Source: Candidatus Heimdallarchaeota archaeon (GTDB taxonomy: Archaea; Asgardarchaeota; Heimdallarchaeia; Heimdallarchaeales; Heimdallarchaeaceae). From it: a stretch of 64,000 bases of DNA. Positions 16,865 to 50,086 of this stretch are shown one piece after another. The translations under genes and the position numbers were made by a program. The stretch's first letter is position 1, and the number at the start of each line of letters is the position of its first letter. The notes below the pieces were generated by a model, which saw only the letters and a list, made by a program, of their open reading frames with translations, searched no databases and was not told the origin of the DNA. The stretch covers positions 2,364-66,363 of the forward strand of contig JAAFKJ010000115.1 of the NCBI GenBank assembly GCA_021399395.1. The letters run 5' to 3'.

Positions 16865-18175
16865 TTATACTTCTGCATCAACACAGCCTTCAGGTGTGAT
16901 TGCAAAAACTGCTTCTGTTTCTGGCAAGTAAGGTGAATCATAAATTCTAATGATTCGTTTTTCTCCTTTAGATTTTCTTAAATAGAAACGTGTTATGGCC
17001 CAGTGTCCTAAGATGTTTCCACCAATAGCTTGTGTTGGATCCCCAAAAAATGCTGCGGGATTTGATTGTACTTGATTTGTAATTGCGATTGCTACACCAT
17101 AAGTATCAGCCAATCTACCTAATATTCCTAGATGGTAGTTAATTGTCTGTTGTCTTTCAGCTAGCGTACCTCTTCCTGCATATTCAGCTCTGAAGTGTGC
17201 TGTTGCTGAGTCAAGTGCAACAAAACCGTATTCGTCTTTGTGATTGTAAAACAATTCTAGTAGTCTTTCTACTAAGGTCATCTGATGGTCTGAGTTATAT
17301 GCTCTTGCATATGTAATATCTCTAAGAACATCTTCAAAGTTCTTTTCCCAACCTAGGTCTTTCTGTAGTTTTTCGTGGATAGCTTTTATTCTGCTTGGAG
17401 AGAATGTACCTTCTGTATCAACAAACACTGCTTTTTTACCAACTCCACCAAGTTCTGGAGGAAGCTGAACAGTTACACACAATTGATGACAAAGTTGAGA
17501 TTTTCCTGAACGAAACGGACCAAAAAATTCTATAGTTTCACCAAGTCTAACACCTGCAACACCTAGTTCATCAATAGTGGTTAAGGCATCCAAAGCTTTT
17601 ATTCCATATGTAAAAGCTGGTGAACCCATTTGCTTTTCCATAATATCAAATGCATTGACAAAATCTATTCCACCCCTTAGCTCACTAAGAGATTCCTTGT
17701 ATTTCTTAGCAGCGCTGGATGTTATACCATATTTTTCTTCTAATTCTCTAATAGGAGTTGTTTCAAGTAAATATACATTTAATCCCTTATCTCTAAGCAT
17801 ATCAGCTGTTGCTTTGCCAACACCAGGAAGATCTTCAAGTCCCATTTCTTCTTTGAAGAACTTATACTTGGCAATTGAACTTGAGATTTCAGCTCGAACT
17901 TTCTTTATTATTGCTCTTTGAAGACCCATTGCTTGGAGTTCAATAAGTCGGGTTGTCATAAGTTCCTCAATTTCATTAATATCATTTTCATTCAAAATAT
18001 CCAGAGTTTTCGTTCCTAAACCAGGTACATCAGTTAATTTCTTGAATTCTACTTTCTTTGATTTTTTAGCAGTTTCCTTCTCAGCAAGCTCTATTAGGTG
18101 TTCTTCATATTCTTCTTCAATTTCCTTTGCATCAGGTTCAGTAATTTCTTCCTGTATCTCTGTCTTTTTGCTCAT
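16865..18175 (-). CDS. radA: RadA recombinase with an extended N-terminus
   Basis: Walker A 'GPFRSGKSQ', Walker B 'FVALDSATAHFR' and a RecA-core C-terminus. Two HhH-like 'PG[LV]G' modules precede the core. Confidence 0.9.
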   Translation of the reverse strand: MSKKTEIQEEITEPDAKEIEEEYEEHLIELAEKETAKKSKKVEFKKLTDVPGLGTKTLDILNENDINEIEELMTTRLIELQAMGLQRAIIKKVRAEISSSIAKYKFFKEEMGLEDLPGVGKATADMLRDKGLNVYLLETTPIRELEEKYGITSSAAKKYKESLSELRGGIDFVNAFDIMEKQMGSPAFTYGIKALDALTTIDELGVAGVRLGETIEFFGPFRSGKSQLCHQLCVTVQLPPELGGVGKKAVFVDTEGTFSPSRIKAIHEKLQKDLGWEKNFEDVLRDITYARAYNSDHQMTLVERLLELFYNHKDEYGFVALDSATAHFRAEYAGRGTLAERQQTINYHLGILGRLADTYGVAIAITNQVQSNPAAFFGDPTQAIGGNILGHWAITRFYLRKSKGEKRIIRIYDSPYLPETEAVFAITPEGCVDAEV

Positions 18176-19422: not shown

Positions 19423-19980
19423 TTATCTTCCCATAGATTTTCGTCTATTATTTTGATCTTGTATTGCATTTTCAATTAGTGTTTTTACAAGATTTGCAAT
19501 ACCGTCACCTGTTAACGCAGATGTTTCTACATATCTGCAACCCAATCTTCTTGCAATTCTTTCTGCATCACTATGTTGAACTTCTCTTGCGACATCTGTT
19601 TTGTTCCCAACAATGGTTATATCTAAATCGATATTTTCTTGGCGTAATTCCCTAATCCAGTCTGCGCATTTTTTAAAAGAGTCCCTATTTGAAACATCAT
19701 AGATTATAGCAGCTGCATTAGTTCCAGGATAAAGAAGTTTTCTTACAACACCAAATCTTTTTTGACCTGCCATGTCATAGAAAAGTGCAACAGCTTTTCC
19801 TTTTTGTGTTTTGAAAGAGTAAGTATGAAATTCCGCCCCGACAGTTGGTTTGTATTTCTTTAGAAATACATTCTCGCTGATTCTTTTACAAATCGTTGTC
19901 TTGCCTGATCTACCCGGTCCACATATGGCAAGTTTATAGATATCATAGTCGCGGAACTTAACTTCTACATTTGAGCCCAT
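19423..19980 (-). CDS. Rab/Ras-like small GTPase
   Basis: G1 'GPGRSGKT', switch I 'PTVGAEF', G3 'YDMAGQKRF', G4 'GNKTDV' and G5 'ETSALTG'. The start is set at the internal ATG (MGSNVEV...). The 34-codon upstream extension looks non-coding. Confidence 0.85.
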   Translation of the reverse strand: MGSNVEVKFRDYDIYKLAICGPGRSGKTTICKRISENVFLKKYKPTVGAEFHTYSFKTQKGKAVALFYDMAGQKRFGVVRKLLYPGTNAAAIIYDVSNRDSFKKCADWIRELRQENIDLDITIVGNKTDVAREVQHSDAERIARRLGCRYVETSALTGDGIANLVKTLIENAIQDQNNRRKSMGR

Positions 19981-20125
19981 CTTTGGGAGCACCATGTAAA
20001 AACCCAGAAAAATAATTAAAAGGCGATGTAATACCTCACAGTTACGAGAACCCATATGTGTTGAATTTTGAAACTCATACACACTGGTTAATTCTTAAAT
20101 ATTACCAAGATGTAATTTGATTAGT

Positions 20126-42694: not shown

Positions 42695-43174
42695 ATGAAC
42701 CCCGTCGAAATAGAACTTTCAGATAAATTAAATGAGTATATACAGAAGCTTGTAGATGACGGTAATTTTGAATCAACAGAAGCTTTTGCTAAGCATGCGA
42801 TTTACTGGTTAGCAGAATTATATGGTTTTGGAGAACAATATGAAGGAAAAAGCCTAAGCGCTATGATTTCAGAAATAATTGGTTCAAAAGCTCAAGTAAC
42901 TACAAGTGCAGTTCAAGATGTTAAAACAGAAGTAAGAACAGTAGTTAAGGACTTAAAGATACCAAACAAAGATCTCATTCTTGAATCCTACAGTTCATCG
43001 AAATTTATGTATGAAAACGCGATTTTTATAGCCTGCCAATTTGCAGCACAAAAACAAGGAAGTCCTCCTATTTCAAAAGAGGAATTTGCGAAGTCTTTGG
43101 AGCAAATGGAGGAAGCTGGAATTTTATCAAGAATCCAGAAAGGCGAAAAAATTATGTGGAAAAGAAATGAATGA
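42695..43174 (+). CDS. Putative ribbon-helix-helix DNA-binding protein with a C-terminal wHTH-like region
   Basis: N-terminal beta-strand then helix pattern 'VEIELSDKLNEYIQKLVDDGNFESTEAFAKHAI', as in CopG/Arc-type proteins. Confidence 0.45.
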   Translation: MNPVEIELSDKLNEYIQKLVDDGNFESTEAFAKHAIYWLAELYGFGEQYEGKSLSAMISEIIGSKAQVTTSAVQDVKTEVRTVVKDLKIPNKDLILESYSSSKFMYENAIFIACQFAAQKQGSPPISKEEFAKSLEQMEEAGILSRIQKGEKIMWKRNE

Positions 43175-43191: not shown

Positions 43192-43872
43192 TTAAACCAT
43201 TAAAGCCTGTGCCATCTCTTGCAATACTTCTTTAGGATCTTTAGCTTTTACAAATCCTGAAGCTAATAGGACTCCTTTTGCACCCATCTGTACAGCTTCA
43301 GCAACATCTTGCGAAGTTGTAACACCCGCACCTACAAGAGGTTGCACTGAACTATTCACATTCTTAATAGCTAATAGTGTTTGCTTTACTAACTCAGGTT
43401 TTGTTGTTACAGAAACACCACTACCAATTAACTCTGGTGGTTCCATTGCACATGCAGATGGTTCCAGAGAAGCTATTGCTTTGCTTGTTTGAATATTGTT
43501 TGAACACACACATGTATAGAAATCCAATTTCTTTGCTTTATCGACTATTTTTTCTATATCTGACAATCTTAATCTGTGTTCAGAGTGGTTAACTAAAGAT
43601 CCCGCAACTCCACTCTCTTTTACTGCTTCTAAGAGATTATTTCCTGTATAACTACCAGCATCATTACCGTCAACATGTTGAGCTAAAACAGGTATTTCAA
43701 CTTCTTGCACAATTAAGCCAATATCTACTGTTTGAGGACACACCGCAATTGAAACTCCAGTTTCAAATGCTACACTTTCTGCTATTTTAGAAAGAACTAA
43801 ACCTCTTTTACCTATGGTCTGAGTGTAGTTTTTATAGTTTAAGATTATTATTGGATAAGTGATATCTGACAT
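43192..43872 (-). CDS. tpiA: Triosephosphate isomerase (archaeal short type)
   Basis: 'IILNYKNY', 'VNHSEHR' and 'EPPELIGSG' motifs. Start at 'MSDITYP'. Confidence 0.85.
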   Translation of the reverse strand: MSDITYPIIILNYKNYTQTIGKRGLVLSKIAESVAFETGVSIAVCPQTVDIGLIVQEVEIPVLAQHVDGNDAGSYTGNNLLEAVKESGVAGSLVNHSEHRLRLSDIEKIVDKAKKLDFYTCVCSNNIQTSKAIASLEPSACAMEPPELIGSGVSVTTKPELVKQTLLAIKNVNSSVQPLVGAGVTTSQDVAEAVQMGAKGVLLASGFVKAKDPKEVLQEMAQALMV

Positions 43873-43993
43873 AAAAGAAAAATTCCACGACATATTTAAA
43901 AACATTGCTTAATATAAATTAGTACGGCTACAGCTGTTGAAAGCTTTAAATATATTTAAAGATAAATAATCAATAAGAGATGTCTAAACACAC

Positions 43994-44521
43994 TTGGTGA
44001 TTTACTTGTATGGTGCTGACCAAATTAATACAATTCTTCATGAGATTATAACAAGTGATGCTAATATTAATCATGTAATATTAGCTGATAAAACAGGATT
44101 AACACTAGCTTACTCCTCACGTTTTGCCTTTGATGAGTTTGAAACAGAAGCATTAGGCGCAATAGCTAGTGCAGTTTATTTAGCTAGTGAACAACAAGGA
44201 ACAAACGTTGGTCTGGCGGAACTAGACATTATCATTTCAGAATTTTCCGATGGTCTAATTTTAGTAGCAAGTTGTGGAAGCACTGTTTTGTGTTTGATTA
44301 CTGACACAGGCGTTGCATTGGGCATGGTTAGAAGAACCATGAAAATAGCAGCTGAAAAAATCAGAAACATATTAGATGTTGAAGCTAAACCTGTTATTGT
44401 TCCCGAAACTCAGCCTGCAGTTGCTGCAACTTCACAACCTGTAGTTGCGGAAGAGAAGAAAGTTCAGGATGAGTTTATCTCCGATTTAGAATTAGCATTA
44501 AGGGAATTAGAACAATTCTAG
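43994..44521 (+). CDS. Roadblock/LC7 (MglB-like) domain protein with a P/A/V/E-rich tail
   Basis: 'INHVILADKTGLTLAYSS...ALGAIASAVY...DGLILVASCGSTVLCLITD' follows the Roadblock alpha-beta-alpha pattern. TTG/GTG start. Confidence 0.7.
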   Translation: MVIYLYGADQINTILHEIITSDANINHVILADKTGLTLAYSSRFAFDEFETEALGAIASAVYLASEQQGTNVGLAELDIIISEFSDGLILVASCGSTVLCLITDTGVALGMVRRTMKIAAEKIRNILDVEAKPVIVPETQPAVAATSQPVVAEEKKVQDEFISDLELALRELEQF

Positions 44522-44546
44522 TTCTATTTATTGTGTAGGGTGTTTG

Positions 44547-45380
44547 ATGGATATGGATGCTCCTGATGAAGGACTAGAACGAATTGGAAAAACGCAAGCG
44601 TCTAAGGATTCAAGAGGAGAGCTAATTTTAACAGGAATCCGTTCTTTAGATCAGAAACTTGGTATGGAAATGGCAAAAAGAAGGGGAATACCCCAGGGAT
44701 CCTTTATCCTTGTAAGTTATCCATCAGGAACAGTTATTCCAACTTTGTTCATTCAGAGAATTCTTCTCAATTGGGCTAAACAATCTCCTGATAATGTGAT
44801 TTTTTATGTTCATAGCAGTCGACCCTATGATCATGTTCAAAATTCCTTCCAAGCATATAATTGGGATGTAAGTCCCTATGAGGGAAAGAATTGGTATTTT
44901 GAAAATATGTTCGATTTATCCAGCTCTGCAATGACTTCATCTTTAAAACTAGGTAAGATTGAAGTGAAGAGAAAAACCTATGTAAACAGAATTCTAGATC
45001 GAATGATTCACGTAAAAGAATCTCAGAAAAAACAATGTTTCAGTGTTTTTGATGATTTACTATGGATGAAAGAAGATAGGTTAGATGAAGATTCAAGTGC
45101 TCTCATTACTTTTATTAAAAGTGCAATTATGAAATTTACAAAAATTGGCGGTGTGCATTTCCTCCTCCTCCCTCAAGGTATTTTGGATCCTGTTGCGGAA
45201 AGAATCATCATGAATGCAGCACAAGGTATATTCCATTTCACAAGGAATACTGTTGGGAGTAGAATCAAGGATACTTTTGCCATAACTAAATTGATGGGGA
45301 TAGCCTTTGTTAGTGAGAATCTAGACATTACTCCTTCAGAAACAGAAGGTTTCAAAATAGAATCAACAGCAAAGATATAG
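44547..45380 (+). CDS. KaiC/RecA-superfamily protein with a degenerate Walker A
   Basis: 'TGIRSLDQKLG...GIPQGSFILVSYPSGTVIPT' is colinear with KaiC-like 'TGI.GLD..LGGGIP.GS..LV.G.PGTGKT' but lacks GK[ST]. The C-terminal 'FAITKLMG...EGFKIE' is also family-like. Confidence 0.65.
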   Translation: MDMDAPDEGLERIGKTQASKDSRGELILTGIRSLDQKLGMEMAKRRGIPQGSFILVSYPSGTVIPTLFIQRILLNWAKQSPDNVIFYVHSSRPYDHVQNSFQAYNWDVSPYEGKNWYFENMFDLSSSAMTSSLKLGKIEVKRKTYVNRILDRMIHVKESQKKQCFSVFDDLLWMKEDRLDEDSSALITFIKSAIMKFTKIGGVHFLLLPQGILDPVAERIIMNAAQGIFHFTRNTVGSRIKDTFAITKLMGIAFVSENLDITPSETEGFKIESTAKI

Positions 45381-46175
45381 ATGATGGTAATGGAAGGTTA
45401 TGAAGAAAATAAAAACGAAGAAGAACCCGAACTAATGGACATTGCATCTGAAATTTCGAAACTTTCAGAAGAAGTTAGTGCGTTAAAGGATAATATCAAA
45501 ACTCCAAAAAAACGCAGCAAAAGTGATAAATCATCTAAAGTTAAACAATCCCCTCAAATTGAGTTATCACCAGCTATTGGATATGTTAATGAATTGTTAG
45601 AAAACTCTTCTGAAGTCATTATCTCAGAGATGAAATCAGAATTCTTCAGATTATTCAATTTTCTTTCAAGTATGTTCTCTGTAACACCCTATCAATCCAT
45701 GGGGAGAACTATTCCTAGAAAGGAGGATTCCATGGAAGACTCAGCTGTTAAGCAAGTTGTATCAACTTCCGAATTCCAAAAGGAAAAAGAAATGATGCAA
45801 TTACTACTTGAAGAACGTGAATCATTAGTATACGAATTGTCTGATCAAATAGTTGCAATTGAAGCTGAAAAGAAAGTGTTAGAAGATAAAATGCAAGAGA
45901 TTGAGAAAGATAAAGCTAAATGGAATACACAGAAGAATATCCTGGAAAGAATAGTAACCACTGATCCAAGATTTAACATAATTACACTTCTAAGAAGAAT
46001 GGGTGTAATTGCACCAATACAGCTCTCTTTTGTTCTTGGGGTTTCTTTGTCACAAACTAGACGCTATATCTCCGAACTAGAACAAATAAAAATATTACAG
46101 GTAAAAGATGATGGTACAGTCTCTTTACATCCTGATTTTGATGAAGATTCTATGAATATTAAAATTCAAGAATGA
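45381..46175 (+). CDS. Coiled-coil protein with a C-terminal winged-helix domain
   Basis: The ATG directly abuts the previous stop. It has a central heptad region. The C-terminus 'ITLLRRMGVIAPIQLSFVLGVSLSQTRRYISELEQIKILQVKDDG' is wHTH-like. Confidence 0.5.
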   Translation: MMVMEGYEENKNEEEPELMDIASEISKLSEEVSALKDNIKTPKKRSKSDKSSKVKQSPQIELSPAIGYVNELLENSSEVIISEMKSEFFRLFNFLSSMFSVTPYQSMGRTIPRKEDSMEDSAVKQVVSTSEFQKEKEMMQLLLEERESLVYELSDQIVAIEAEKKVLEDKMQEIEKDKAKWNTQKNILERIVTTDPRFNIITLLRRMGVIAPIQLSFVLGVSLSQTRRYISELEQIKILQVKDDGTVSLHPDFDEDSMNIKIQE

Positions 46176-46215
46176 TTTTTTTGAAAATAAAGTAAAAATA
46201 GAAGAGAAGTTTCGT

Positions 46216-46785
46216 CTATTGTTGAGCATAGAGTTTTTCATAGAAAAGAACGATATTCTTCAACAAAGTTTTGAATGCTTCATCAACGTTTTCTCCAGTT
46301 TTAGCTGAAGTTTCTATGTATGGAACAGTAAACCCTGACCATTGAGACAATGACCTAGCATATTCTTCTGATTGTTCTCTCATGATTGGATCTTTTGCTG
46401 TTGCTCGTAAGTCTGATTTATTCCCTATTAGGACTATTGGTACAACTCTATTGCTATTGTTTTTTAGAAGTTCTGCAATCCATGAAGGAATGTTCTCAAA
46501 ACTTGAACGTCTAGATATGTCAAAAACCAACAAACATCCAGATGTACCTCTGTAGTAAACCTCTCTAACAGCTGAGAATCTTTGCTGTCCTGCTAAATCC
46601 CAGATTTGAGCAACAAAATCCTGATCGTCAATACGTAGGCGCTTAACTGCAAAATCTGCACCAATTGTCATTGAATATCCGTCTTTGAAACCCTCACCTA
46701 AATAGGTTTTGCGGAGGCTAGTTTTTCCAACTGCTCCGTCTCCGAGTAGAGTTATTTTGAAGATTTTACGTTGTCCGGCACCCAT
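46216..46785 (-). CDS. Rab-like small GTPase
   Basis: G1 'GDGAVGKTS', 'TIGADF', G3 'WDLAGQQRF', G4 'GNKSDL' and G5 'ETSAKTG'. There is no C-terminal Cys prenylation motif. ATG at 46785. Confidence 0.85.
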   Translation of the reverse strand: MGAGQRKIFKITLLGDGAVGKTSLRKTYLGEGFKDGYSMTIGADFAVKRLRIDDQDFVAQIWDLAGQQRFSAVREVYYRGTSGCLLVFDISRRSSFENIPSWIAELLKNNSNRVVPIVLIGNKSDLRATAKDPIMREQSEEYARSLSQWSGFTVPYIETSAKTGENVDEAFKTLLKNIVLFYEKLYAQQ

Positions 46786-47011
46786 TATAAGTTCCCCATT
46801 ATACAATTTATTTATTCTCTCGGATACTATTTAAATTGTTTGTTATTTCTCGTTAAACTATGTTTTCACTTTTTCAAGCAATATTCTGTTTTCATCAGCT
46901 TTTGTTATCGATTATTCTTCAATTTTGACATCATCTACAAAAAACATTATAAAAAATCTTACATCTTCATATTTCACAAAATATAAAATTAGGATAACAT
47001 TCTTATTTCTA

Positions 47012-47788: not shown

Positions 47789-50086
47789 ATGTCAAAAATT
47801 GATATTCTTCCACCATTGTTAACTCGAATTGGTTTTAGTGAAACTGATATTAAGGTTTATTCAGCAACCTTAGGGCTAGGCAAAGTTACAATTGGAGAAT
47901 TGCTGGTTGTAACAGGAATTGACCCATTAACACTCATCCAATCAGTAAAAAATCTAGAGGAGCTAGGGTTTCTCAAGAAAATAGCGGGTAAAACTCCTCA
48001 GTATTTTGGAATGTTACCATTTCTTAAGGAATATATAGTAATTGAAAAAGACGCCCTTTATTCTATAGATGGTGTTATTACCGCTCTAAAATCTTCCAAG
48101 AAAGATTATCAACAAAAGAAAACAAAATTTGGAGGAACTTTAGAATTAACAGGGGAAGGAACTGTTTTCGATATTCATGTTGTTAGCGGTTTAATAAAAC
48201 AAGTAGTTGATACCTTATATCAAAATTATGTTGAGTATAGTGATCAAGCTGCAACTACAGCTTCTGAATTTGTAGCTGAGAGCAGTGGAGAAATTGAAGG
48301 ATACTTGTCTCGAGTTATGGATCAACCTTTTGTATTTTCTACACAACTTGAGACCTTTATTCAAGAATTGAATGCTTTTGTTAAACAGTTTCATCATTCA
48401 GCCAAGCAAAATAATGAAATTCTAATTCAAGCAACTGAAGAGAAAATAAACACAACTCATGATAATCTGTCTCAAATTATTTGTAATGGTTTAGATGCTC
48501 ATACTGAGAATCACAGTGAATTTCTAGAGAAATTGGCACCTGAACTGGATAATGTTCTCAAAGAATTAGTAGGTCAAATAACACAGACACAGGAATCATA
48601 TGTTGACAATTATAATAAAATTTGGCAAGAAGCTTATAATTCTTGGACAACAGAATCAAAGAAGGTTACTGACGAACTATCAAATGAAGTGAATTCTCTA
48701 TTTTCTGAGCAGATAAAACAAACTCAAGAACTTAGACGTAGTGTTGAACAAATTGATAGGCAGACTAATTTCCTTTCTTCAAAAATTGCTGAAGCGATTA
48801 ATGCTATTGATACATCTGCGGTTCTAAAGCTAGGTAAGGCTCGAAAACAAATTGAATCACCCTTATCAGACGCTCGAGATACAATAAGAAATCTAGCTAA
48901 CGATCTAAATGAGAGCGGTCTACAATTAATTGATCAGTATGTTCTTTCACTTAATGACGTTAGAGATAATATACGTTCTAAATTAGATCATTTCCAAATT
49001 GCTGGAGAAACTACAATAAGAACTAAGAAGAACGAACTCACTGGAGCTGCAATCGAGAAAATCGATCTTCTACCAAATGAATTGATTGATTCAATACAGA
49101 ACCAGGTGGAGAAATACGCGGCCTCCTCATTTGATTCTTGTTTAGAAGTTACTGGACAACTTAAAGAAACTACAAAAGAGAGGCTCTCTTCAACAAAAGA
49201 ACAAACTCTACAAGATTTCAAATCTCATGATATTGAAAAAACTCAGATAATAGATAAAATTCAAAATGATACCATAAAGGAGCTTGAAAAATCTAAACAA
49301 GATGCAGAAAAAATGGCCCTTGAACTAAAGGAGAAGATTCAGGTTTCATTAGATCAGTTCAAACAGCGCACCACAGATAAGCAAAACGAAGTGGCAATGC
49401 AATTAACTGCTGCAAAACAGAACTTAAAGGATTATAAGGATGATCAAAAAGATCAGATAATTAAACAAGTAACAGAAGGAGAAGAGATACAAATAAACAC
49501 TCTCGTTTCTCAAGTAGCATCTGTAATCAAAGATGTGGATGAAATTCTAGTATCACAACTAGATTCAATGATGGAAAAAGCTATGACTTTCTATCAAGTT
49601 ATTAATACGAGAGAAGATGAACTCCGACAAGTAGATACAGCTGCCTCATCCTACTCATTAGAAGGACAACATAATACCTCTATTATCGTTGGTGAAGAAG
49701 CAATAAAAGCAAGTATAACTGATATCGCTATGCGGTCAAAATACGAACTTCTTCTTGTAACACCTGACGTAGATGAAGATCTTCTAAAAGAAATGATGCA
49801 ATATACTAAGGCTCAAAGAATTACTTTGGTATCCTATTTTGATAAAAGGCACCAACCTTTACTTCGACCTTTAGCCGAAAGATTCACTGGTTTAAAACTT
49901 AAACATTATGAGAAGAAGGATGTGTACTGTGGAATTTTAGATGGAAATCATGAAGCTATTTTTGCTTTCCTTACAACTGATTCAGTTCCAATTGCGATTA
50001 GGACAACTAATGAATTGCTTTTAGGACTATTCAAATCTGCAATAAATAGAGATGTATTATTCCACTCAAGTGATGTAGAAGTTTAA
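47789..50086 (+). CDS. TrmB-like wHTH protein with a very long internal coiled-coil region
   Basis: The N-terminus 'IGFSETDIKVYSATLGLGKVTIGELLVVTGIDPLTLIQSVKNLEELGFLKK' matches the TrmB HTH. About 500 aa are Q/E/K-rich and helical. The C-terminal ~130 aa form a globular domain. Confidence 0.6.
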   Translation: MSKIDILPPLLTRIGFSETDIKVYSATLGLGKVTIGELLVVTGIDPLTLIQSVKNLEELGFLKKIAGKTPQYFGMLPFLKEYIVIEKDALYSIDGVITALKSSKKDYQQKKTKFGGTLELTGEGTVFDIHVVSGLIKQVVDTLYQNYVEYSDQAATTASEFVAESSGEIEGYLSRVMDQPFVFSTQLETFIQELNAFVKQFHHSAKQNNEILIQATEEKINTTHDNLSQIICNGLDAHTENHSEFLEKLAPELDNVLKELVGQITQTQESYVDNYNKIWQEAYNSWTTESKKVTDELSNEVNSLFSEQIKQTQELRRSVEQIDRQTNFLSSKIAEAINAIDTSAVLKLGKARKQIESPLSDARDTIRNLANDLNESGLQLIDQYVLSLNDVRDNIRSKLDHFQIAGETTIRTKKNELTGAAIEKIDLLPNELIDSIQNQVEKYAASSFDSCLEVTGQLKETTKERLSSTKEQTLQDFKSHDIEKTQIIDKIQNDTIKELEKSKQDAEKMALELKEKIQVSLDQFKQRTTDKQNEVAMQLTAAKQNLKDYKDDQKDQIIKQVTEGEEIQINTLVSQVASVIKDVDEILVSQLDSMMEKAMTFYQVINTREDELRQVDTAASSYSLEGQHNTSIIVGEEAIKASITDIAMRSKYELLLVTPDVDEDLLKEMMQYTKAQRITLVSYFDKRHQPLLRPLAERFTGLKLKHYEKKDVYCGILDGNHEAIFAFLTTDSVPIAIRTTNELLLGLFKSAINRDVLFHSSDVEV

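Follow-up and report, generated by a model that had tools for sequence, protein, structure and literature searches.

A conserved operon of Roadblock, inactivated KaiC-like and coiled-coil winged-helix genes beside a Rab-like GTPase gene in Heimdallarchaeaceae

The locus and its four proteins

A 64-kb stretch of a contig from a metagenome-assembled Candidatus Heimdallarchaeota (Heimdallarchaeaceae) genome (JAAFKJ010000115.1; the whole stretch is called the window below) carries three adjacent genes on the plus strand. They encode a Roadblock/LC7 protein, a KaiC-like protein with a disrupted active site (iKaiC, for inactivated KaiC) and a coiled-coil protein that ends in a winged helix-turn-helix domain (CC-wHTH). 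The three genes, referred to here as the trio, form a genuine operon, and a gene for a Rab-like small GTPase faces them from the minus strand. All four open reading frames (ORFs) were confirmed at the coordinates of a preliminary description of the window. That account of three tightly packed plus-strand genes, for a Roadblock/LC7 protein, a KaiC/RecA-fold protein whose Walker A lacks GK[ST] and a coiled coil ending in a winged helix, stopping 40 nt from the 3' end of a convergent Rab-like GTPase gene, is borne out by the features listed here and by the protein evidence that follows.

43939..43952, plus strand: BRE (B recognition element)/TATA-like promoter element GAAAGCTTTAAATA, conserved across 19 aligned upstream regions
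43997..44521, plus strand: Roadblock/LC7 (MglB-type) gene, from Pfam Robl_LC7; the mechanical ORF runs from TTG 43994
44547..45380, plus strand: iKaiC gene, inactivated single-domain KaiC/RecA fold, from Pfam, AlphaFold2 (AF2) and profile alignment
45381..46175, plus strand: CC-wHTH gene, coiled coil and C-terminal winged helix, from AF2, Foldseek and Pfam HTH_24
46176..46215, no strand: convergent spacer of 40 nt, read from the sequence
46216..46785, minus strand: Rab-like small GTPase gene, from Pfam Ras; neighbour of the operon

The Roadblock and iKaiC genes are 22 nt apart if iKaiC starts at TTG 44544, and 25 nt apart if it starts at ATG 44547, which is the more likely. There is no gap (0 nt) between iKaiC and CC-wHTH, as the CC-wHTH start at 45381 is the base after the iKaiC stop codon. 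The promoter element GAAAGCTTTAAATA lies ~45 nt 5' of the Roadblock start codon. This start is probably GTG 43997, since in 19 orthologous upstream regions the GTG is conserved and TTG 43994 is not. By the same kind of comparison the GTPase starts at ATG 46785 and not at TTG 46806, which orthologs do not share. The span of 43994-46806 in the preliminary description therefore holds for the ORFs and is adjusted at both outer starts. The 40-nt spacer is likely to be a bidirectional archaeal terminator, with a T7 run (46176-46182) straight after the CC-wHTH stop and, on the other strand, T-runs past the stop of the GTPase gene. An Rfam search of the whole window gave no structured-RNA matches.

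A palindrome, ACAGCTGT, is found at 43930-43937, between the promoter elements of the Roadblock gene and of the divergent TIM gene upstream. It is kept in most orthologous loci and deleted in four (L006, L016, L027 and L031), and it is a candidate operator.

The Roadblock protein scores 32.1 bits against Pfam Robl_LC7 (PF03259), above the gathering cut-off of 23, and thus belongs to the superfamily. Its best solved relatives are MglB of M. xanthus (E 2e-4), Streptomyces CvnB5 and LAMTOR2. In the family alignment a strongly conserved Roadblock core (~residues 1-130) is followed by an acidic linker that varies and then by an invariant helix at the C-terminus with the motif DEF[IL][SA]DL[EQ]xAL[RK]ELExF. 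Across Heimdallarchaeaceae the protein is 84-96% identical, versus 81-94% for aIF2-gamma, with third codon positions saturated. It is thus under strong purifying selection and better conserved than a universal translation factor. A Roadblock relative, P0201 (L046), stands alone and lacks the terminal ELExF of the motif, and was set aside as a probable paralog.

iKaiC is a single-domain protein of 277 aa. With 24.3 bits for Pfam KaiC (PF06745) the window protein falls just short of the cut-off of 26.6, and 13 of the 19 family members match this Pfam family, with a best E of 2.5e-9. The AF2 model, with a predicted local distance difference test (pLDDT) score of 84, is matched by Foldseek to KaiC CI/CII, Sso2452, PH0284 and PH0186 (E ~5e-13), and on this model the protein has a KaiC/RecA fold. 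In a profile alignment with Sso2452, SYPSGTVIPT stands opposite the P-loop GEPGTGKT, and YVHSSRP stands opposite YVTTEES, the catalytic Glu site. The Lys/Thr of the P-loop has therefore been lost, and so has the catalytic Glu. The loss of the active site is common to all 19 aligned members, none of which has GK[ST]. The family still has the Walker B Asp (D169) and the N-terminal KaiC signature. The protein is not a bona fide circadian KaiC, since it has no tandem CI-CII and there is no KaiB/thioredoxin-like Pfam match among the scanned neighbours. The KaiC-like and coiled-coil proteins of the window are 100% identical to GOP50_08440 and GOP50_08445.

CC-wHTH is modelled by AF2 as helices at residues 16-39, 63-99 and 121-194, followed by a winged helix at 196-249 (helices 196-207, 212-219 and 223-235 and a beta hairpin). 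The second and third of the long helices are conserved, and a basic Lys/Ser-rich linker lies at 41-62. Heptad periodicity is above that of shuffled controls at 15-42 and 148-175. The top Foldseek matches are all wHTH domains (MarR, ArsR, DtxR and CggR; E 2.5e-3 to 2e-2), and Pfam HTH_24 is matched by 12 of the 21 family members.

Pfam Ras matches the Rab-like GTPase at 166 bits, and among solved structures a Thorarchaeota Rab comes closest (1e-39), ahead of Ypt7/Rab7 and Rab11. The G1-G5 and RabF-like motifs are intact (GDGAVGKT, TIGADF, WDLAGQQRF, YYRGT, GNKSDL and ETSAK), as is the catalytic Gln (DLAGQ). The protein ends in ...FYEKLYAQQ, without a Cys, and so lacks the C-terminal prenylation motif of eukaryotic Rabs. 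It is 97-100% identical across Heimdallarchaeaceae species, against 81-87% for aIF2-gamma and ~50% at third codon positions. Judged by these values it is under stronger constraint than the universal translation factor, and together with the Roadblock protein it is one of the two most conserved proteins of the syntenic block.

A second small GTPase is encoded in the window at 19423-20082 on the minus strand. It is 34% identical to the Rab-like GTPase, and a RadA recombinase is encoded at 16865-18175 on the same strand. A related lineage has a HEAT-Rab fusion, found as ORFs of ~1121 aa (L063:3280-6642 and L064:1469-4738). A GTPase domain 82% identical to that of the window forms the C-terminus of the fusion, and the first ~900 residues are PBS-lyase-type HEAT repeats.

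Gene order in related archaea

Loci for comparison were taken from a scan of GTDB species representatives with the iKaiC family alignment (40 loci), from look-ups of the encoding contigs, and from a metagenome scan with the GTPase (79 loci). All were annotated by tblastn and family hidden Markov models. The Roadblock gene is directly upstream of iKaiC and on the same strand in 41 of the 47 loci carrying iKaiC, and CC-wHTH is directly downstream in 39 of the 47, with a 0-nt iKaiC/CC-wHTH junction in most loci. Since the entire ±8 kb block is syntenic within Heimdallarchaeaceae, conservation inside this family is uninformative, and taken alone it would also suit three mere neighbours with unrelated functions, a chance arrangement kept by genome relatedness. 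The loci labelled Kariarchaeota/Kariarchaeaceae or LC_2 make this explanation highly improbable. Here the order, strand and short gaps of the trio persist at 40-50% protein identity in other surroundings, with PHO4-PhoU upstream instead of TIM (L004, L047 and L048) and TIM or a thioredoxin-like gene downstream. The frequent 0-nt junction also argues against chance, as does the same narrow taxonomic range of all three families. The persistence of the order with changed flanks points to a selected operon, and by this comparison the trio is an operon conserved across Heimdall- and Kari-type Asgard archaea.

The arrangement is looser in some loci. In a third sub-clade the same Roadblock ortholog, its C-terminal motif intact, is 0.4-3.3 kb off and on the other strand (L001, L043 and L044). 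A 229-aa gene downstream in L001 was considered as a CC-wHTH and excluded, as it does not align to the family. Because the order loosens in such loci and CC-wHTH is lost in some of them, Roadblock and the dead KaiC are the tightest pair.

Word-indexed searches with all three proteins gave only Heimdall/Kari-labelled proteins. An exhaustive iKaiC profile search of 1.84 billion representatives gave only two full-length 50%-identity clusters and then relatives at E ~1e-18. These next relatives belong to Heimdall, Hod, Sif, Borr and Prometheoarchaeota lineages and to Methanofastidiosia. All match Pfam KaiC clearly (E down to 1e-37) and are without the Walker A Lys. Since the nearest relatives are also Walker-A-dead, the iKaiC family is one that has diverged within a broader group of inactivated KaiC proteins. 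Of the outgroup loci, the two that were examined, in Hodarchaeales (L049) and Borrarchaeum (L050), have other neighbours and no Roadblock, and the Borrarchaeum relative adjoins an active-type KaiC. A metagenomic outgroup protein of 428 aa, P0230, carries at its N-terminus a wHTH (HTH_45), which a linker joins to an inactivated KaiC domain whose Walker A reads GETTAHNIT. The wHTH and iKaiC domain types are therefore linked in a single protein.

The preliminary description had joined all four genes in a GTPase-controlled switch. Gene order in relatives upholds one part of this, as the trio stays together across two families; the GTPase is adjacent in Heimdallarchaeaceae only. A small GTPase is present in 0 of 14 distant loci in the fetched flanks (4-8 kb where the contig allows), and with adjacency confined to one family the switch is not supported as stated. 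Since Roadblock proteins classically partner and regulate small GTPases, such a switch may nevertheless operate.

A specific form of GTPase control would be a conservon-like G-protein module for the adjacent Rab-like GTPase. The Roadblock protein would then be a platform for GTPase activation (GAP) or guanine nucleotide exchange (GEF), CC-wHTH a GEF or effector like CvnC/MfpC, and the dead KaiC a scaffold. Actinobacterial conservons (CvnA-D; Mfp) likewise join a Roadblock protein, a helical/HTH-like protein of unclear function (a putative GEF of unknown fold) and a small GTPase, and the closest solved relatives of the Roadblock protein here include MglB and CvnB5. The GTPase is adjacent and convergent in ~28 Heimdallarchaeaceae-type loci, and every metagenomic contig with a GTPase copy at least 86% identical also carries part of the trio. 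The GTPase still adjoins iKaiC where CC-wHTH has been lost (L032). The high conservation of both GTPase and Roadblock protein within the block also fits. Asgard genomes hold dozens of genes for small GTPases and for Roadblock or longin proteins. The GTPases are generally not in operons with Roadblock or longin genes (Tran et al. 2024). Because they are so rarely encoded together, GTPase-regulator pairings in Asgard archaea are unreadable from genome layout, and a stable GTPase-Roadblock adjacency is unusual, which favours the conservon-like module.

Other features of the loci argue against this module, and it is unlikely. The GTPase gene is convergent, so it is not co-transcribed with the trio, and the ~28 loci come from a family in which the whole ±8 kb from aIF2-gamma to a TrmB-like gene is syntenic. 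The adjacency is broken in Ca. Heimdallarchaeum PR6 and PM71 (L029 and L030), where an inversion of the endonuclease III-GTPase segment splits the GTPase from the operon. The 14 distant loci have no small GTPase in the fetched flanks. In the LC_2 loci L004 and L005 a GTPase lies two genes downstream, but it is only 38-41% identical to the window GTPase and is therefore a different paralog. GTPase relatives that are at most 82% identical in the metagenome scan never have Roadblock, iKaiC or CC-wHTH in their flanks. Small GTPases are also common here, with two in the 64-kb window. The conservon components themselves are missing, since no CvnA-type histidine kinase is found among the ORFs between 40 and 51 kb, and DUF742 gives no match at E <= 0.1 for CC-wHTH and none among the 21 family members. 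Unlike a conservon, the locus has a KaiC-fold pseudo-ATPase, and its Rab-like GTPase lies outside the operon. Membership of the conservons proper was ruled out by the lack of a histidine kinase, of DUF742 and of a co-transcribed MglA-type GTPase.

Given the adjacency in one family, the inversion and the GTPase-free distant loci, the coupling to the GTPase is lineage-limited and inseparable from synteny inertia. Gene order therefore ties the Roadblock protein most strongly to the dead KaiC, and not to the GTPase.

Two loci have unusual arrangements around the GTPase. In L032 (5156-6478) CC-wHTH is absent, and iKaiC is directly convergent with the GTPase at a distance of 21 nt. In L059 (144-2224) the GTPase and CC-wHTH are convergent, and Roadblock is next on the opposite strand, with no iKaiC in between.

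A possible inactivated KaiC hub

It is possible that the operon encodes a non-enzymatic three-part regulatory complex of the inactivated KaiC hub kind, and this is the reading tentatively preferred here. In such a complex iKaiC, presumably unable to bind or hydrolyse ATP in the canonical way, would act as the scaffold. The MglB-type Roadblock protein, presumably a dimer, may dock on this pseudo-NTPase as Roadblock dimers dock on P-loop NTPases, and its invariant C-terminal helix may be a second docking element, analogous to the MglB C-terminal helix. CC-wHTH would dimerise and present two winged helices as the output, which by analogy is most likely nucleic-acid binding. Its availability might be set by binding to the iKaiC scaffold, along the lines of GvpD-GvpE and KaiC-SasA/RpaA. 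In Heimdallarchaeaceae only, the Roadblock platform may also take an input from the adjacent, extremely conserved Rab-like GTPase, though this would not be a conserved feature of the module. The sequence comparisons show the gene identities, the loss of catalytic residues, the operon signals, the conserved gene order and the strong purifying selection. That the complex forms, which protein binds which, that DNA is bound and that the GTPase provides an input are all points that we infer.

Several observations weigh against the three-part complex. The Foldseek wHTH matches of CC-wHTH are weak (E of at least 2.5e-3), and the best solved match of the family profile is the ribosomal protein eS25 and not the wHTH of a transcription factor, so the output could be RNA or protein binding. 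The wHTH is only a putative DNA-binding domain, with a core charge of +2 in a protein that is acidic overall. CC-wHTH is not beside iKaiC in one sub-clade (L001, L039, L043 and L044; 3 kb away in L045) and is missing altogether in L032, indicating that it is not obligatory. The flanking genes are housekeeping genes and give no functional hint.

Some of the same observations would fit a GTPase-independent structural or housekeeping assembly, for example a coiled-coil tether associated with chromatin, ribosomes or RNA. Roadblock and the dead KaiC would then be only assembly subunits, and the GTPase a bystander by synteny inertia. The flanks are of the housekeeping type in both families (aIF2-gamma, Spt4, S24e, TIM, RLI and ribosomal proteins), and the Roadblock protein is conserved beyond the universal translation factor. 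In addition to the eS25 match, CC-wHTH has weak NCBIfam matches to S25e and to the Sul12a chromatin protein. It is acidic overall, with an isoelectric point (pI) of 4.9, the wHTH core being no more than mildly basic (+2). However, these wHTH similarities are generic, and no positive tie to ribosomes or chromatin was found. The CC-wHTH gene is dispensable in some lineages, and a paper citing the original survey connects other inactivated KaiC relatives with signalling domains. A structural assembly of this kind, with the GTPase as a bystander, is rather unlikely.

The proposed hub complex agrees with a class of proteins that is already recognised. Makarova, Galperin and Koonin (2017, mBio), as cited elsewhere, describe inactivated KaiC-like domains as archaeal signal transduction hubs. 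Like these, iKaiC has a single KaiC/RecA-fold domain with a disrupted Walker A, and it is encoded beside putative input and output proteins. Disrupted nucleotide-binding motifs and signalling partners, the marks of iKaiC proteins, are thus both found here, and the nearest relatives share the loss. The window family differs in being far diverged (below the Pfam cut-off) and restricted to Heimdall/Kari lineages. Its partner is a Roadblock protein, and not KaiB, REC, a DEATH-like domain or a second active KaiC.

The Roadblock protein most resembles the MglA-MglB system of Myxococcus and Thermus, as MglB is its best solved match and both have the same layout of Roadblock domain, flexible linker and C-terminal helix. 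The locus is nevertheless not an MglA-MglB module. Its GTPase has a catalytic Gln of its own and is Rab-like, not MglA-type; the GTPase gene is on the other strand and does not stay with the module in relatives; and gene order points to the dead KaiC as the partner of the Roadblock protein. An Asgard operon of a LAMTOR1-like Roadblock protein, a Rab-like GTPase and DENN (Liu et al. 2020/2021) is also similar, as an Asgard neighbourhood that pairs a Roadblock-superfamily protein with a Rab-like GTPase. The Roadblock protein here differs in being MglB/LAMTOR2-like with a C-terminal helix, and its conserved partners are iKaiC and CC-wHTH. This type of operon was ruled out, since there is no DENN match among the scanned neighbouring proteins.

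The output side of the preferred complex resembles other systems in logic only. In GvpD-GvpE of haloarchaeal gas vesicles and in KaiC-SasA-RpaA, the regulator that binds DNA is a dimer or coiled coil, and a KaiC-family protein controls it. GvpD and KaiC differ from iKaiC in being active P-loop proteins, and no sequence relationship to GvpE or RpaA was found, though no test was aimed at one. An anti-phage defence system was also considered and ruled out, as PADLOC gave 0 matches for all four proteins and the flanks are housekeeping genes. Full-text searches, which did not cover Makarova et al. 2017, found no paper linking KaiC-like and Roadblock proteins in Asgard archaea. The combination of Roadblock, dead KaiC and CC-wHTH is apparently undescribed, and the preliminary description was right to regard the arrangement as one not previously recognised.

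A stronger proposal, limited to Heimdallarchaeaceae, combines the hub with the GTPase. The Rab-like GTPase would be read by a Roadblock dimer on iKaiC, which would gate a dimeric CC-wHTH DNA binder, giving a direct pathway from a G-protein to transcription or chromatin. This proposal is very doubtful. If true, it would place such a pathway in close archaeal relatives of eukaryotes, and it would be among the first cases of an Asgard Rab and its regulator being paired in a genome.

The locus is a compact, strongly constrained and tractable set of three small soluble proteins and one Rab-like GTPase. It bears on two questions: does a Roadblock platform of Heimdallarchaeia have a GTPase, a pseudo-NTPase or both as its partner, and by what route do inactivated KaiC proteins, which have been proposed to be signalling hubs of archaea, reach their outputs? 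Should the link to the GTPase fail, the trio would still be a new pairing of Roadblock with a pseudo-ATPase, extending the idea that Roadblock proteins regulate NTPases to a RecA-fold partner. It is a testable lead on how Roadblock proteins and pseudo-ATPases may signal in archaea closely related to eukaryotes, one in which coupling to the GTPase is not established.

Flanking genes

The genes that flank the trio in the window encode aIF2-gamma, an RpoE-like S1 protein, Spt4, DUF359, S24e, TIM and endonuclease III. TIM (43192-43905, minus strand) is upstream of the trio and divergent from it here, and lies downstream on the same strand in LC_2-type loci (L004, L005 and L040). Its real start is probably an internal Met at ~43872, because a conserved TATA-like element, TTTAAAAA, is found at 43895-43902.

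A hypothetical protein of 159 aa with no family match is encoded at 42695-43174 on the plus strand. Its gene lies between S24e and TIM throughout Heimdallarchaeaceae, and the protein is 37-87% identical there.

One Heimdallarchaeota-labelled locus in the PHO4-PhoU context (L048:1-1431) has ESCRT-I/II genes (Vps28, EAP30/Vps22 and Vps25) ~4.5 kb upstream of the trio. Since unrelated genes lie between, this proximity is probably coincidental.

The gene at 47789-50086 on the plus strand encodes a protein of 765 aa in which a TrmB wHTH at the N-terminus is followed by a long, apolipoprotein-like stretch of helix and by a globular domain at the C-terminus. Such a TrmB-like protein is also encoded within ~5 kb of the trio in Kariarchaeaceae-type loci (L004, L037, L040, L041 and L047).

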